DNA from: a virus
Taxonomy: Duplodnaviria > Heunggongvirae > Uroviricota > Caudoviricetes
Direction: 5' to 3' (one strand)
Virus record (IMG/VR): IMGVR_UViG_2734482780_000004
DNA length: 7,365 nucleotides
Shown here: piece by piece, positions 2,689 through 7,365 of the stretch
Position numbering within the stretch: position 1 is the first letter of the stretch
Layout: each line of letters opens with the position of its first letter
The notes under the pieces: model-generated
The model's database searches: none
What the model saw: the letters and a program-made list of their open reading frames with translations, nothing else
Told to the model about the DNA's origin: nothing
Made by a program: the position numbers and the translations under genes

Positions 2689-3180
2689 GCCCCCATCAGC
2701 CGTGTCGAAATGAGCCTGGAAGCGCGGCTGACCCAGCTCATCATCAAACCGCAGAAAACCGGCGGTGACTTCAAGGAAATTGACCTGCTGGGACGCCAGA
2801 TTGAACGACTGGCGCGGGTCAACCGCTACAGTCAGACCGGCAACGAGGCAGACCTTAATCCGAACGTCGCTAACCGCAACAAAGGCGGGCGTCGCAAACC
2901 GAAAAAGAATTTTTTCAGTGACGAAGCCATCGAAAAGCTGGAGCAGATTTTCTTTGAGCAGTCTTTCGACTATCAGTTGCACTGGTATCGCGCCGGGCTT
3001 GAGCACCGCATCCGCGATATACTGAAATCCCGCCAGATTGGCGCAACGTTTTATTTTTCCCGCGAGGCGCTGCTGCGCGCCCTGAAAACCGGCCATAACC
3101 AGATTTTTCTGTCGGCCAGTAAAACGCAGGCGTATGTGTTCCGCGAATACATCATCGCCTTTGCCCGTCTGGCTGAATGA
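2689..3180 (+). pseudogene. P: Terminase large (ATPase) subunit gene P, N-proximal fragment of about 160 codons, ended by an out-of-context stop
   Basis: Plus-strand frame reads [44 protein letters not shown] ... [58 protein letters not shown]. It contains a P-loop-like KSRQIGAT motif typical of phage terminase ATPase N-domains. The fragment is far too short for the roughly 590-aa protein I recall. The frame upstream of about 2689 is antisense to the O remnant. Confidence 0.6.
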
Positions 3181-3676: not shown

Positions 3677-3817
3677 ACACCCCGTCATCCCCCCTCACAC
3701 GCTCACCACCGCACAAAACACCCCGCAGACACACCAACGCCTCAACGGGCAGACTAAGCGCCTTCACGACGCGCTCAGACGCTGAAAAAATAAAATCAGC
3801 ACCACCGCCAGCGCGCA

Positions 3818-3836
3818 GTGCTTTCCCCGCCTCGCC
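3818..3836. other. cos: cos site: P2 19-nt cohesive-end sequence (cosN)
   Basis: GTGCTTTCCCCGCCTCGCC at 3818-3836 is the exact reverse complement of the P2 cohesive-end sequence GGCGAGGCGGGGAAAGCAC as I recall it. It lies about 170 bp beyond the portal gene stop in a C-rich non-coding stretch, the expected location. Confidence 0.75.
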
Positions 3837-3994
3837 CGCCCGCTTCATAGGTCGGTTTTAATGCAGGTGCATTACCACTTTTGAGGGGCGTCCGTCCTGA
3901 CGGTGCACAGCCAGAACATGCAACTTAGGCACATGCAAAACCACGCACATATTGCATGCACTGCTAAAAATAGGAGTATCGCAGAAAAAAACAC

Positions 3995-4024
3995 AAAAAA
4001 ACCGGCATTCATAGTGCCGGTTTT
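3995..4024. terminator. Bidirectional intrinsic terminator hairpin between cos and the cargo island
   Basis: A-tract 3995-4000, stem ACCGGCA (4001-4007), 7-nt loop TTCATAG, stem TGCCGGT (4015-4021), then T-run through 4024. The A-tract/T-tract symmetry allows termination on either strand. Confidence 0.55.
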
Positions 4025-4159
4025 GGCCAATTTTTAAAGTTGTCACTGGCCGCGCAATGCACCAATCTCACTGTTGACGCACATGTTGACAACAATTAGC
4101 AGAACAATCGTGTCCACACATTTTTACAAACGACACCTAACAGATTGATACAGATCATT

Positions 4160-4354
4160 TTATTTGTTCATTCGAATATAATTCAATAGCATCTTGATGA
4201 CCTGAGCGAGTTCTACGCTAGTTGCCTGCGCAACCAGCTTATCGGTATATATGTCAACTTCGCGTGAACTAAGATCATTGTTTTGTGCCAGAGTGGTAAT
4301 CTGCCTCGTCCAGCGTTTAACCCACTCATTATCAAAAGAAATGGAATTTTGCAT
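4160..4354 (-). CDS. Possible small protein (64 aa), head-to-head with the first cargo gene; coding status uncertain
   Basis: Track ORF MQNSISFDNEWVKRWTRQITTLAQNNDLSSREVDIYTDKLVAQATSVELAQVIKMLLNYIRMNK. Its ATG (4354..4352) shares the palindromic GCATGT with the plus-strand ATG at 4353. There is no convincing Shine-Dalgarno, and the region also carries plus-strand promoter-like hexamers. Confidence 0.25.
   Translation of the reverse strand: MQNSISFDNEWVKRWTRQITTLAQNNDLSSREVDIYTDKLVAQATSVELAQVIKMLLNYIRMNK
4177..4182 (+). promoter_or_regulatory. Candidate -10 element (TATAAT) for the cargo operon
   Basis: Perfect TATAAT at 4177-4182 in an AT-rich stretch about 170 nt upstream of the 4353 start. 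The -35 match is poor (ATCATT at 4154-4159). An alternative is TTTACA (4123-4128), 17-nt spacer, TGATAC. Confidence 0.25.
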
Positions 4355-4790
4355 GTCGAAAAATCTCGATTTATTTAACCAACAAACGGCGGAAATCTTT
4401 GCAGTACTATGGGAAAATTTTCCCGTACCACAGGTGATTAACTACGACAAATTTAACGCCGCGCTACCTGATGACTACTTTGACCAACTTAACTCACCAG
4501 AAATGAAAGCGTTAAATCAGTTGCGTAGTGTGGTTGAAGGTACATTCAATTTTCTCTGTGAAAACGGGTACATTCAGTACAACACAGACCATCAGTCGTA
4601 TTTTTACGATGTTCGACTTACTGAAAAAGCGCTCACAGTTCTTAACAAAAAACCCGAGGTGCTTGGTGGAAATGAAACGATGGGGGATAAAGTGATCAGT
4701 GCGGTGAAAGATGGGACTCCTGGGGTCATTGCCGGTGTGATTACAAATCTGCTGACTCACGGCGTTAATCTGGTTGCGTCAGTGTCATAG
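4353..4790 (+). CDS. Hypothetical protein, 145 aa, with a Gly-rich hydrophobic C-terminal tail
   Basis: ORF MSKNLDLFNQQTAEIFAVLWENFPVPQVINYDKFNAALPDDYFDQ ... AVKDGTPGVIAGVITNLLTHGVNLVASVS, ending at TAG 4788-4790. An alternative ATG at 4341 would add MEFC. The extended track start at 4251 is rejected because its N-terminal 30 codons are Cys/Arg-rich and antisense-like. Shine-Dalgarno is weak (GGAA 4343-4346). The gene is AT-rich, unlike the phage core. Confidence 0.6.
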   Translation: MSKNLDLFNQQTAEIFAVLWENFPVPQVINYDKFNAALPDDYFDQLNSPEMKALNQLRSVVEGTFNFLCENGYIQYNTDHQSYFYDVRLTEKALTVLNKKPEVLGGNETMGDKVISAVKDGTPGVIAGVITNLLTHGVNLVASVS

Positions 4791-4952
4791 CCAACGCCCC
4801 AAAGAGACTCATTGTCCCTCGTCACACTACTTGCTTTTAGTTCTGACGAGATTAAATCCGCTCACAGTGTTTACTGCGGAAAAGTTGCGTTATTATCCAT
4901 ATGATTTAACATCTTGGATTCATGTTAATTCACAGTTTAATAAGGATATGGA

Positions 4953-6044
4953 ATGGGTTACGAAATTGATTTTCTAGCTGTTGGCGAAAAAAAAAGCGGC
5001 GATGCGATCTGCATCAGATGGGGAAACCTACATGGTTCAAGAGATGAACAAAAAGTTGTCGTTATTGATGCAGGATATGCCAGCACCGGAGAACAAGTCA
5101 TTGAGCATATTGAAAAATACTACCGCACAAAAACTATTGACTTGCTTATCTCCACACACCCCGATGGTGACCACGTCGGTGGACTTACATCTGTTCTAGA
5201 AAATGCAGAAGTAAAAGAGTTTTGGATTCATAAGCCTTGGGAACATAATCAAGGTCTCGCAAGTGAGTTTGCAGATGGCAGGATAACTGATGCCAGTATT
5301 GCAAATCGAATGAAAGAAAACTTACAAAAAGCTTATGACGCTGTCAAATTAGCGGAAAAAAAAGGAATTGAAATAAAAGAGCCTTTTCAAGGAATGACCT
5401 GGGATAATGCTACTCTGGTTGTTATCGGGCCAACCCAATCTTACTATGAGACTCTAATACCTGATTTCGCAAGAATGCCCAAAAAAGCTGAGGATACAGC
5501 TGGATTTGAAGTACTAAAAGCAGTCTTTGAGTCTGTAGTTGAAAAAACGAAGAAATTTATTGATTACGTTGCTGAATGGTTTACTGATGAAGGTATTGAT
5601 AATGAAGATACCACCTCGGCACAAAATAACTCAAGTGTCATTTTGAAACTTGAGATTGATGGAAGAACGTTAGTGTTCACTGGCGATGCTGGTATAACAG
5701 CCTTAGATCAAGCCTCCCAATACATTAATAAAGAATCATTAAGATTCATTCAAGTACCTCATCATGGTAGCCGGAGAAATGTAGGCCCTGATGTTCTCGA
5801 TAAACTTGTTGGTAACATTGTAAATGAAGGCGAAAAAAGGGAGATAACCGCATTTGTATCATGTGCCCCAGGTTCAGATAAACATCCCCATCAAGCTGTA
5901 ATTAATGCCTTTACTCGACGAGGAGCGAAAGTTATCGCCACCGAGGGGCTTGGTAAGTACCATTTTTATAATGCTCCTGAAAGGGCAGGATGGAAAACAG
6001 CCACTCCACGATCATACATTAGTAACTATAGAACCGAAGAATAA
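4953..6044 (+). CDS. Metallo-beta-lactamase-fold metal-dependent hydrolase (ComEC-like subfamily by motifs), 363 aa; possible nuclease
   Basis: Strong Shine-Dalgarno AAGGA (4942-4946) 6 nt before ATG 4953. MBL-fold motif series in order: VVVIDAGY, STHPDGDHVGG (HxHxDH position, with Asp replacing the second His), VFTGDAG, VPHHGS. A roughly 140-aa acidic/Lys-rich insertion sits between the N- and C-terminal halves of the fold. Stop is TAA 6042-6044. Confidence 0.85.
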   Translation: MGYEIDFLAVGEKKSGDAICIRWGNLHGSRDEQKVVVIDAGYASTGEQVIEHIEKYYRTKTIDLLISTHPDGDHVGGLTSVLENAEVKEFWIHKPWEHNQGLASEFADGRITDASIANRMKENLQKAYDAVKLAEKKGIEIKEPFQGMTWDNATLVVIGPTQSYYETLIPDFARMPKKAEDTAGFEVLKAVFESVVEKTKKFIDYVAEWFTDEGIDNEDTTSAQNNSSVILKLEIDGRTLVFTGDAGITALDQASQYINKESLRFIQVPHHGSRRNVGPDVLDKLVGNIVNEGEKREITAFVSCAPGSDKHPHQAVINAFTRRGAKVIATEGLGKYHFYNAPERAGWKTATPRSYISNYRTEE

Positions 6045-6049
6045 TTCAA

Positions 6050-6069
6050 AAGCTGCCTTACGGCAGCTT
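6050..6069. terminator. Hairpin between the convergent hydrolase and membrane-protein genes
   Basis: AAGCTGCC (6050-6057), loop TTAC, GGCAGCTT (6062-6069), starting 6 nt after the hydrolase stop and overlapping the last codons of the minus-strand gene. There is no long T-run on either side, so terminator function is inferred. Confidence 0.45.
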
Positions 6070-6690
6070 ATTATTAACAGCATTTACTCTATATATTATG
6101 TATCTTATTTGTTTAATATATGAGACAACAAACAAAATAGCAAAAACCGCCAACGTTATTTTAGATAAGCCATATGTCTCGCCAGTAAACCGTCCTACAA
6201 CGCACAATGTCGCCAAAAGAATAATTGACATTGAAAATATCGTCCTATACATATTCGCAATCTCTTGCAAAGTTTCAATTTTTCCATCCACACCACATGC
6301 TGACACATAATCTTTATAAGGAGCAAACTTAATCAAACGCGATAGTTTTAAAAAAGGTTCCAATACGATAGAACCAATCCGGCCAATGACTAAGCCAACA
6401 AAATAATAGAGGACAACATTTTTTATTAAATCATCGCCAGATAAAACGATATTCGTCATTCTCTCAAGAAGATAAATAAAAAGAGCACCTGGAAAAAGAT
6501 TATTAAATATATTATATGACGATATTTTTTCCCATAAACCATCCATACCAATCACCTTACTACAGTTTAAATCAGAGATCATTTTCATTGAAAAATACAT
6601 ATATAGCAAGAAATCTATAGCGATTCTGACATCCAACCTGAGTCTATCAGTAGTTAATCTCTTCAGAAAAGAGTGCATAACGAAAACCAA
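6058..6690 (-). CDS. Multi-pass membrane protein (about 4 predicted TM helices), 162-210 aa depending on start
   Basis: Track ORF with four hydrophobic segments: LFPGALFIYLL, VVLYYFVGLVIGRIGSIVL, IFSMSIILLATLCVVGRF, ITLAVFAILFVVSYI. The track start at 6690 is TTG; the first ATG is at 6678 with no Shine-Dalgarno. The ATG at 6546 (MDGLWEK) has a good AGGTGAT Shine-Dalgarno (6557-6551). The frame is open across 48 AT-rich codons upstream of 6546, which mildly favours the longer form. Confidence 0.6.
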   Translation of the reverse strand: MVFVMHSFLKRLTTDRLRLDVRIAIDFLLYMYFSMKMISDLNCSKVIGMDGLWEKISSYNIFNNLFPGALFIYLLERMTNIVLSGDDLIKNVVLYYFVGLVIGRIGSIVLEPFLKLSRLIKFAPYKDYVSACGVDGKIETLQEIANMYRTIFSMSIILLATLCVVGRFTGETYGLSKITLAVFAILFVVSYIKQIRYIIYRVNAVNNKLP

Positions 6691-6794
6691 TCACAGGAAA
6701 TCGGCTATGTAAATTTTCGACCGTCGTATATCAATGGTACACCACGCCCCCCACGCTTACATTACTTCTGTGTGATGCCATACTGAGCGAGGTC

Positions 6795-6821
6795 TATATA
6801 AATACTAGTAATTTATCACAA
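6795..6821 (-). promoter_or_regulatory. Candidate sigma70 promoter for the membrane-protein gene
   Basis: On the minus strand, TTGTGA (6821..6816), a 15-nt spacer, then TATATA (6800..6795). The alternative is a 17-nt spacer with TATAGA. It lies about 100 nt upstream of the ORF start. Confidence 0.3.
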
Positions 6822-6840
6822 ACCTGATTTGATCAGCCTC

Positions 6841-6985
6841 GCGATGGCACAAATGCAAGCGGTTTTAACGGACTTCCGTTTCTTTGCTGACGATTTGGTA
6901 TTCTCAGACCGTGTTTTAATGCACCTCTGAGCGCCCTCACGACCGCCGGATCATTCCATTCGATTACCCGTCATCAAATTGATTC
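6841..6985. repeat. Direct repeat copy 1: degenerate, frameshifted duplicate of part of the flanking gene
   Basis: Positions 6859-6985 align with 7191-7320 at about 90% identity by hand alignment (gcggttttaacggacttccgtttctttgctgacgatttgg...). Weaker similarity extends to about 6841 and 7172. In a shifted minus-strand frame copy 1 encodes RVIEWNDPAVVRALRGALKHGLRIPNRQQRNGSPLKPLAFVPSRG, closed immediately upstream by stop codons. Confidence 0.8.
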
Positions 6986-7365
6986 CACTCTGTTATAGTT
7001 GAATATCCCGGCCACTCATCAGCGACCGGATACGTGAATTTTTTCCCGTCATAATTTACGGTTGCCCCACGCGCCAGCGACTCAAGCTCCCATCGCTGAG
7101 GTCTGATACCGTTCTGAGCAAGATCAACGCGAATACGGGTAATTTGCAATCGCTCCGACCTGGTCAGCCTGGCTGATGGCGCTATTTCATGCGGTTTTAA
7201 CGGACTTCCGTTTCTTTGCTGACGATTTGGTGTTCTCAGTCCGCATTTTAATGCACCTCTGAGCGCCCTCACAACCTCCGGGTCACTCCATTCGATAACA
7301 CCGTCATCAACCAGATTAAGCACTGCTGCGGCGTGTTCAGAAGGTGTGGGAGCCGGTAACGAAGT
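6964..7365 (-). CDS. Phage protein of unknown identity, 3' part only (at least 133 codons; N-terminus beyond window end)
   Basis: The minus-strand frame is open from the window end (TSLPAPTPSEHAAAV, then LNLVDDGVIEWSDPEVVRALRGALKCGLRTPNRQQRNGSPLKPHEIAPSA ... TITEWNQFDDG) to stop TAA at 6966..6964. The track start at 7323 is only an internal GTG. Orientation and position fit the distal end of the P2 early/replication operon, but I cannot assign it to gene A or a neighbour from memory. Confidence 0.5.
   Translation of the reverse strand, partial: TSLPAPTPSEHAAAVLNLVDDGVIEWSDPEVVRALRGALKCGLRTPNRQQRNGSPLKPHEIAPSARLTRSERLQITRIRVDLAQNGIRPQRWELESLARGATVNYDGKKFTYPVADEWPGYSTITEWNQFDDG
7172..7320. repeat. 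Direct repeat copy 2: in-frame coding copy inside the flanking gene
   Basis: Partner of the 6841-6985 repeat. It encodes residues NLVDDGVIEWSDPEVVRALRGALKCGLRTPNRQQRNGSPLKPHEIAPSA of the minus-strand gene. Confidence 0.8.

Follow-up and report, generated by a model that had tools for sequence, protein, structure and literature searches.

A PDC-M48-type pair of an MBL-fold hydrolase and a membrane protein, beside an independent two-gene module, in the cos–gpA hotspot of a P2-like prophage sequence

The window analysed here, a stretch of 7365 nt from the Caudoviricetes record IMGVR_UViG_2734482780_000004 of IMG/VR, carries an AT-rich island of cargo genes between its cos site and its replication endonuclease gene, gpA. 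A first-pass annotation of this DNA had read the island as a single three-gene module, possibly anti-phage and belonging to no named system. We are highly confident that it comprises four genes in two separate cargo modules, and that the second module, in which the gene of a metallo-β-lactamase (MBL)-fold metallohydrolase converges on the gene of a small inner-membrane protein, is a member of the family PDC-M48. The open reading frames of the earlier annotation, at 4353–4790 (145 residues), 4953–6044 (363 residues, MBL-fold) and 6058–6690, are all present; missing from it was a fourth gene of 64 residues on the minus strand at 4160–4354, a member of PHROG 2454. An anti-phage role of the hydrolase and membrane protein, which had also been proposed, is still the best reading of the pair.

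Both proteins of this second module match the PADLOC models of PDC-M48 and their genes are adjacent, with stop codons 13 nt apart, which places the window locus in that family. The hydrolase (4953–6044, plus strand; WP_021561350) matches PDC-M48B (PDLC04676) at 1.1e-100, residues 3–357 aligning to positions 5–353 of the 357 in the profile, as well as Pfam Lactamase_B at 6e-12. For the membrane protein, the matches to PDC-M48A span the whole profile (PDLC04670, 1.5e-50; PDLC04671, 2.6e-45), and PHROG 11864 is matched at 1e-97. The PDC series of Payne et al. 2024 (10.1101/2024.01.29.577857) consists of 145 phage defence candidates, drawn from genes that lie within BREX, DISARM and type I restriction–modification loci, and PDC-M48 is cassette CAS_00157 of that study. 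In this source cassette the two genes are co-directional (FAM_01875>>FAM_00178), whereas in the P2-like phages they are convergent. The identical proteins also appear in a published inventory of P2 hotspots: one row in Table S5A of Rousset et al. 2022 (PMC9122126) holds the accessions WP_021561351 + WP_021561350 + WP_001752367 + WP_023908566 under the name ‘hypothetical + Lactamase_B + hypothetical + hypothetical’, and a two-gene allele, WP_021533448 + WP_021533447, is listed in the same table. The earlier view of an undescribed system, for which a search against defence catalogues had been suggested, thus had to be given up once that search matched the pair to a named candidate. The locus is already catalogued, and the window adds no new kind of system.

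The membrane gene proved to be shorter than first drawn. Its convergent orientation and multiple transmembrane (TM) segments were described correctly, but translation starts at ATG 6546, which has a Shine-Dalgarno sequence, AAGGTGA, 6 nt upstream, and not at TTG 6690, which has none; in the alignments with RefSeq, PADLOC and PHROG, residue 49 of the 210-residue reading frame is always the first. The gene therefore occupies 6058–6546 on the minus strand and encodes an inner-membrane protein of 162 residues (WP_021561351) with three to four TM helices. Three hydrophobic segments are strong and one is weaker, and the AlphaFold2 (AF2) model, with a predicted local distance difference test (pLDDT) score of 89, consists of four long helices; no specific fold match was found in the PDB. 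The invariant polar residues of the family (K7, S9, S10, Y11, R56, Y77, R101, T102, K145 and Q146) lie at the N-terminus, in the loop 63–97 and at the start of the C-terminal tail, and the distribution of lysine and arginine places these regions in the cytoplasm. The family is small, with about 950 clusters (50% identity) at E ≤ 1e-10 in a set of 1.84 billion representatives; the best 150 matches listed are all stand-alone proteins of 158–216 residues. The name ‘phosphohistidine phosphatase’ given to this protein in some public records was not supported by any scan.

The division of the island into two modules rests on their distribution among 5426 complete Escherichia coli genomes. The entire island is carried by 23 of them, with the three genes of the earlier annotation together at no less than 99% identity; a further 56 have module 1, the 64- and 145-residue genes, beside other cargo, and 22 have the hydrolase and membrane genes alone. 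In these 22 genomes module 2 takes the form of a 72%-identical allele, which is the sole cargo between the portal gene and gpA, as it is in the hotspot of the isolated phages D8, 11W, 12W and P24E6b. When the window was compared by blastn with one locus bearing this allele (L003), positions 4951–6615 aligned to 5458–7117 at 72.7%, and outside this interval the two sequences were unrelated until gpA. Since the similarity is confined to this interval, the conserved cassette consists of the two genes and 69 nt upstream of the membrane gene, its 5′ leader (6547–6615, minus strand). The two P2 alleles of the pair are 75% and 63–65% identical in amino-acid sequence, and in viral contigs every hydrolase of at least 58% identity (16 of 16) is accompanied by a convergent membrane partner.

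The initial proposal was a three-gene defence or abortive-infection module in which the hydrolase and the membrane protein have the 145-residue protein as a small partner; the shared AT-rich interval and the joint presence of the three genes in 23 genomes speak for it. The 145-residue gene, however, is missing from the 22 genomes and four phages with the 72% allele, and in 56 genomes, as well as in phages of Klebsiella, Salmonella and Escherichia, its homologues adjoin other cargo, their constant neighbour being the 64-residue gene. It travels with that gene and not with the hydrolase, and we consider a three-gene module very improbable. The first-pass annotation had staked its claim on two points, the lack of a named match and the co-occurrence of the three genes; with two of the three proteins assigned to a named candidate, and the three genes failing to co-occur as a set, the claim falls in part on its own terms.

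Linkage of the hydrolase and membrane genes extends well beyond the Enterobacteria. Sampling with the membrane protein as anchor gave 80 loci, each from a different species and together covering at least 15 phyla; in 68 of them the membrane gene has an MBL gene directly beside it, co-directionally in 66 and convergently in two, namely L018 of Huaxiibacter chinensis, where the pair lies between the gpA and portal genes, and L097 of Occallatibacter (Acidobacteriota). The other 12 comprise eight loci in which the MBL gene is followed by a gene of about 770 codons for an E2-E1-JAB protein and then by the membrane gene, two cut by contig ends, one in which the MBL gene lies 1.4 kb away and one with no MBL gene. 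The pair is also present on independent contigs, for example within a polysaccharide-biosynthesis neighbourhood of Faecalibacillus and in a Porphyromonas conjugative transposon, and in the loci examined outside the Enterobacteria it never needs the 145-residue gene. At other loci it lies near genes for a type IIG/ISP restriction enzyme, a Panacea-domain protein, ApeA and 6A-MBL components. On these sequence comparisons, the pair is a conserved functional unit. Apart from the acidobacterial locus, the convergent layout was limited to Enterobacterales among the loci examined (L018, L103–L113).

More distant viral MBLs, at 32–42% identity (L114–L127, L133), mostly still match PDC-M48B, and their partner is a protein of about 250 residues with four TM helices, encoded downstream. 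PADLOC has no model for this partner, in which similarity to PDC-M48A could not be detected; its homology with the 162-residue protein was rejected, with an hhalign probability of 0.4%. MBLs of the PDC-M48B family are thus found with two unrelated TM partners, and the feature common to these partners is their location in the membrane. Loci of the second kind would escape PADLOC as systems.

The position of the cassette is one argument for a role in defence. The annotated gene order of the prophage is gpM, gpN, gpO, terminase, portal, island, gpA and early genes, and the succession of portal gene, cos, cargo and gpA agrees with the hotspot context of Rousset et al. 2022, in which the P2 tin/old hotspot, from portal gene Q to gene A, is a reservoir of anti-phage systems (PMC9122126). 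The placement of the island at the tin/old position was therefore right, as was the description of its base composition: G+C is 0.30–0.45 over about 3900–6900 and 0.50–0.64 in the flanking structural (capsid) genes. The old and tin genes of P2 occupy the same slot; a scan of the island proteins with PADLOC, which covers known and candidate defence proteins, returned only MBL-type and PDC-M48 matches. The window belongs to a P2-like prophage of E. coli, and its region 3800–7000 is 100% identical to the chromosomes of E. coli strains 4/1-1 and O25b:H4.

P2 hotspots hold non-defence cargo too, such as partition systems and cytolethal distending toxin (Rousset et al. 2022, PMC9122126). The pair could accordingly be an addiction (toxin–antitoxin-like) module, or a lysogenic-conversion or envelope-related phosphodiesterase that aids the prophage; the structural similarity of the hydrolase to the esterase Pce and the polysaccharide-biosynthesis surroundings of the Faecalibacillus pair would suit such a role. 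However, the hydrolase has no signal peptide, its residues 1–7 forming the first β-strand of the fold, which makes an extracytoplasmic substrate unlikely. Moreover, the pair is found repeatedly in or beside defence genes, and 18 of the 80 loci have 6A-MBL components. We regard a non-defence function as unlikely, and a defence role of the pair as probable.

The hydrolase itself is predicted to be a metal-dependent DNase of the ComEC type. Its metal-binding motifs are intact (HxDxDH, a downstream His, an Asp and a His pair), and H69, D71, D73, H74, H93, D245, H270 and H271 are invariant across 33 homologues of 49–80% identity. The closest solved relative is the beta-lactamase-like domain of ComEC (9ic4), by sequence (E = 2.5e-8) and by Foldseek comparison with the AF2 model (E = 1e-12, TM-score on target 0.73); the runner-up is the phosphorylcholine esterase Pce, and the phosphodiesterase tw9814 is among the fold matches. 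Mean pLDDT of the model is 88.7, and its sole disordered stretch is 184–196. The HxDxDH motif is common to the window protein and the MBL domain of ComEC/Rec2 (9ic4, 30bt), but the 363 residues of the former make up an MBL domain only, lacking the channel (‘competence’) and OB domains of ComEC. The two align in two pieces only, the window protein being about 74 residues longer in the part from 86 to 219, and the loop 176–200 differs in length and sequence among homologues. We rejected the RefSeq name ‘ComEC/Rec2 family competence protein’ as a statement of function: TIGR00361 gives 49.2 bits against a cut-off of 190, and only in its C-terminal MBL part. The label ‘tail protein’ of PHROG 7043, which covers the hydrolase family, found no support in any scan, and the public names for 4953–6546 (these two and ‘phosphohistidine phosphatase’) look unreliable in general.

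The window hydrolase has large insertions relative to ComEC and belongs to the same ComEC-like clade as the protease-gated MBLs of HamMAB, Avs1, Lamassu, DRT and canu systems. According to papers of 2025 (PMC12799240, 10.1101/2025.09.03.673762, PMC12642450), HamM, Avs-associated MBLs and CanC are latent DNases in which two inserted loops cover the active site until a partner protease cuts them. The window hydrolase aligns in one collinear stretch with the PADLOC profile of the LmuA MBL (residues 13–285 to profile 10–278, 1.6e-29), and equally in single collinear stretches with RTasMBL (3.9e-20) and Avs1a (2.5e-14). Nevertheless, assignment to Avs1a or to Lamassu/DRT-MBL was rejected, as the required partners are missing and the scores are far under the cut-offs. 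Domain scans found no trypsin-like or caspase-like protease in any open reading frame of the island. The protease-gated MBLs have conserved cleavage sites, whereas none is conserved in the variable loop of the window hydrolase, and its partner is a membrane protein. The Rst_Hydrolase-3Tm system of Rousset et al. 2022 resembles the pair in combining a hydrolase with a TM protein; it too was rejected as an identity, because its hydrolase is HAD-like and comes from P4 satellites, while that of the window is MBL-fold.

Taking these comparisons together, we lean somewhat towards reading the pair as an anti-phage effector consisting of a latent, membrane-partnered DNase of the ComEC type, with the membrane protein licensing or localising the hydrolase. 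In uninfected lysogens the cytoplasmic hydrolase would be held inactive, either by putative lid-like insertions (about residues 95–220, including the flexible loop 176–200), by docking to the membrane partner on its conserved cytoplasmic side, or by both. A membrane-proximal cue of infection would then release or activate it to cut DNA, and it may attack either incoming DNA at the membrane (exclusion) or the whole DNA of the cell (abortive infection). The membrane protein would thereby take the licensing role that a fused protease has in HamMAB, Avs1, Lamassu, DRT and canu. These details of gating are put forward tentatively.

The roles of the two proteins could also be reversed, the membrane protein being the killing effector, by pore formation or depolarisation, and the hydrolase a sensor or regulator that, for instance, hydrolyses a nucleotide signal. 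Many defence systems have small multi-TM proteins as their presumed effectors (Rousset et al. 2022, PMC9122126), the MBL fold includes phosphodiesterases such as the Pce and tw9814 matches, and the membrane protein has many invariant polar residues. On the other hand, the closest relatives of the hydrolase with known defence roles are effector DNases, the locus encodes no signal-generating enzyme, and the association of one MBL family with two unrelated membrane partners is easier to understand if the MBL is the constant effector. A killing role of the membrane protein thus seems unlikely to us.

Several points weigh against the latent-DNase reading. DNA as the substrate is drawn from relatives at 13–18% identity, and the second structural match is an esterase, Pce. 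The loop 176–200 is variable, unlike the conserved cleavage sites of the protease-gated MBLs, and no protease is encoded here. PDC-M48 is a prediction by definition, and membership in it gives no mechanism. In Rousset et al. 2022 (PMC9122126) the term ‘lactamase’ occurs in Table S5A only and not in the list of systems that were tested, the main text is silent on this arrangement, and an experimental test of the pair was not found in the literature searched, including DefensePredictor and a domain-centric screen. Finally, the genes of the P2 alleles are convergent and do not form an operon, which weakens the argument from co-regulation.

The survey of neighbourhoods revealed a connexion of the pair with 6A-MBL systems, which likewise have a ComEC-like MBL and whose genes are followed by a membrane protein of the PDC-M48A family in eight of the 80 loci. 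The protein of about 770 residues is an E2-E1-JAB fusion, with E-values down to 1e-160 against NCBIfam NF058523 (‘anti-phage 6A-MBL system cap2_3 protein’); those of the MBL encoded before it reach 3e-107 against NF058524, and the membrane protein encoded after it matches PDC-M48A at 5e-62. Hidden Markov model searches placed an E2-E1-JAB gene within 6 kb of the membrane gene in 18 of the 80 loci and none within that distance in the other 62, and several loci hold two MBLs, one of the 6A type and one of the PDC-M48B type. These arrangements suggest a composite system of four genes from which smaller versions were derived. In the account of Iyer et al. 2006, operon type 6a usually has two genes, for the triple-module protein and a specialised MBL, and no membrane protein is listed. 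In two later papers, 6A-MBL is cited as a validated defence of Pseudomonas aeruginosa, and one of them counts it among jumbo-phage defences. In the papers we read, this genetic connexion of PDC-M48 with 6A-MBL is not described. The E2-E1-JAB gene is immediately followed by the membrane gene in L019, L020, L024, L027, L031, L034, L035, L044, L064 and L089, both gene sets are present nearby in L021, L026, L033, L037, L040, L078, L096 and L097, and in L027 and L034 the MBL of the PDC-M48B type seems to be in fragments.

The window locus is not itself a 6A-MBL system, an assignment we rejected because the E2-E1-JAB gene is missing and the MBL scores far under the cut-off. The open reading frames between cos and gpA are those of the 64-residue, 145-residue, MBL and membrane genes, and none of them is an E2-E1-JAB gene; with NF058524 the hydrolase scores 33.9 bits against a cut-off of 220, whereas true 6A-type MBLs score 286–359 bits, and it aligns with a 6A-type MBL at the catalytic motifs only. 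Alone in P2 the pair might be inactive, a sub-module or remnant of a larger system of the ubiquitin-like type (6A-MBL, E2-E1-JAB), as the E2-E1-JAB genes in 18 of the 80 loci and the position of the membrane gene right after the 6A-MBL gene pair in eight would allow. But 62 loci are without E2-E1-JAB within 6 kb, the two-gene form keeps its catalytic motifs in many phyla and in both of the diverged P2 alleles, and viable phages have it as their sole cargo. These features point to an autonomous unit under purifying selection, and an inert remnant is in our opinion improbable.

On the latent-DNase reading, the licensing role in 6A-MBL systems would fall to E2-E1-JAB, and the PDC-M48A family is present at some of the same loci. 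It is conceivable, though rather doubtful, that PDC-M48A is a dedicated membrane platform for licensing ComEC-like defence DNases, common to the two-gene MBL–TM systems and to 6A-MBL, and that the P2 cassette is a DNase gated at the membrane and independent of proteases. Such a cassette would sense an event of infection close to the membrane, for example genome injection or a perturbation of the membrane, and cut DNA at its point of entry, a cytoplasmic mirror image of the nuclease-at-channel layout of ComEC. If true, a protease-free version with only a conserved membrane partner would represent a different licensing of the same effector, and the membrane partner family accompanies some 6A-MBL systems as well. 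Module 2 is small (1.7 kb) and is the sole hotspot cargo of the culturable phages named above, which makes it easy to test.

The borders of the island could be defined on both sides. A P2-type cos of 19 nt, GTGCTTTCCCCGCCTCGCC, was read directly at 3818–3836, where the first-pass annotation had put it; we take this sequence to be the reverse complement of the P2 cohesive end. The minus-strand gene with its 3′ end at 6964, which forms the second border, is the C-terminal part of replication endonuclease gene A (6964–7365; RefSeq label in the intact prophage locus L001, PHROG 91 match), and its reading frame stays open without a stop to the end of the window. The two hairpins said to bracket the island were both recovered by scanning or folding. 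The first, between cos and cargo (3998–4024), was found by terminator scan and folding as a bidirectional terminator-like structure with a stem of 10–12 bp and T-runs on both sides, of −13.6 kcal/mol on the minus strand (z = −2.8) and −16.1 kcal/mol on the plus strand (z = −3.8). The second, a perfect 8-bp hairpin (6050–6069), is situated in the 13-nt space between the convergent stop codons of the hydrolase and membrane genes, with −13.6 and −14.0 kcal/mol (z = −6.3 and −4.3) and none of 200 shuffled sequences equally stable; it escaped the terminator scan because it lacks a strong T-run.

At the gpA border, the segment 6843–6984 is a decayed direct copy of an internal gpA segment at 7175–7317 and covers the gpA stop codon as well as non-coding DNA past it. 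The repeat is 142 bp long and 89% identical, and the C-terminus of gpA, NQFDDG*, mirrors the internal NLVDDG. The extra copy does not occur at the L003 locus with the 72% allele. It is probably a recombination scar of cargo exchange at the border of the hotspot.

Upstream of cos the window lacks two stretches that intact prophages (L001, L002) have. About 905 bp, corresponding to N-terminal parts of the scaffold gene gpO and the terminase gene gpP, are lacking at 2687–2690, and about 1680 bp, with the remainder of gpP and the N-terminal half of the portal gene gpQ, at 3169–3176, so that a terminase fragment of 231 residues and a portal fragment of 171 residues are left. Neither junction was found in any of the 5426 complete E. 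coli genomes. The window derives either from a defective prophage outside this collection or from a spliced sequence.

Module 1 shuffles on its own among P2-like phages, independently of the MBL system. Its 64-residue gene (4160–4354, minus strand) matches PHROG 2454 at 4.1e-35 over residues 1–64 of 64, and its 145-residue gene (4353–4790, plus strand) matches PHROG 2266 at 5e-59; the two are divergent, and their start codons share 2 nt (CATG at 4352–4355). The 145-residue protein had no match in Pfam, PADLOC or NCBIfam, and a PDB sequence search with it gave weak matches to repeat proteins only. The copies of the pair in the 56 further E. coli genomes are about 82% identical in DNA and lie in the same hotspot next to unrelated cargo, which may be a reverse transcriptase with a helix-turn-helix gene (O157:H7), an AAA ATPase, or GNAT or DinI-like genes. 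Klebsiella, Salmonella and Escherichia P2-like phages also carry the module without an MBL gene at the locus, and the 64-residue gene is annotated beside the 145-residue homologue in the related prophage and phage loci L004–L007, L147 and L148; the two always travel together. An anti-defence or regulatory role of module 1 is possible. In the depositor annotation of phage Midge, HHpred likeness (91% probability) of the 145-residue homologue to T7 gp5.5/5.7 is recorded.

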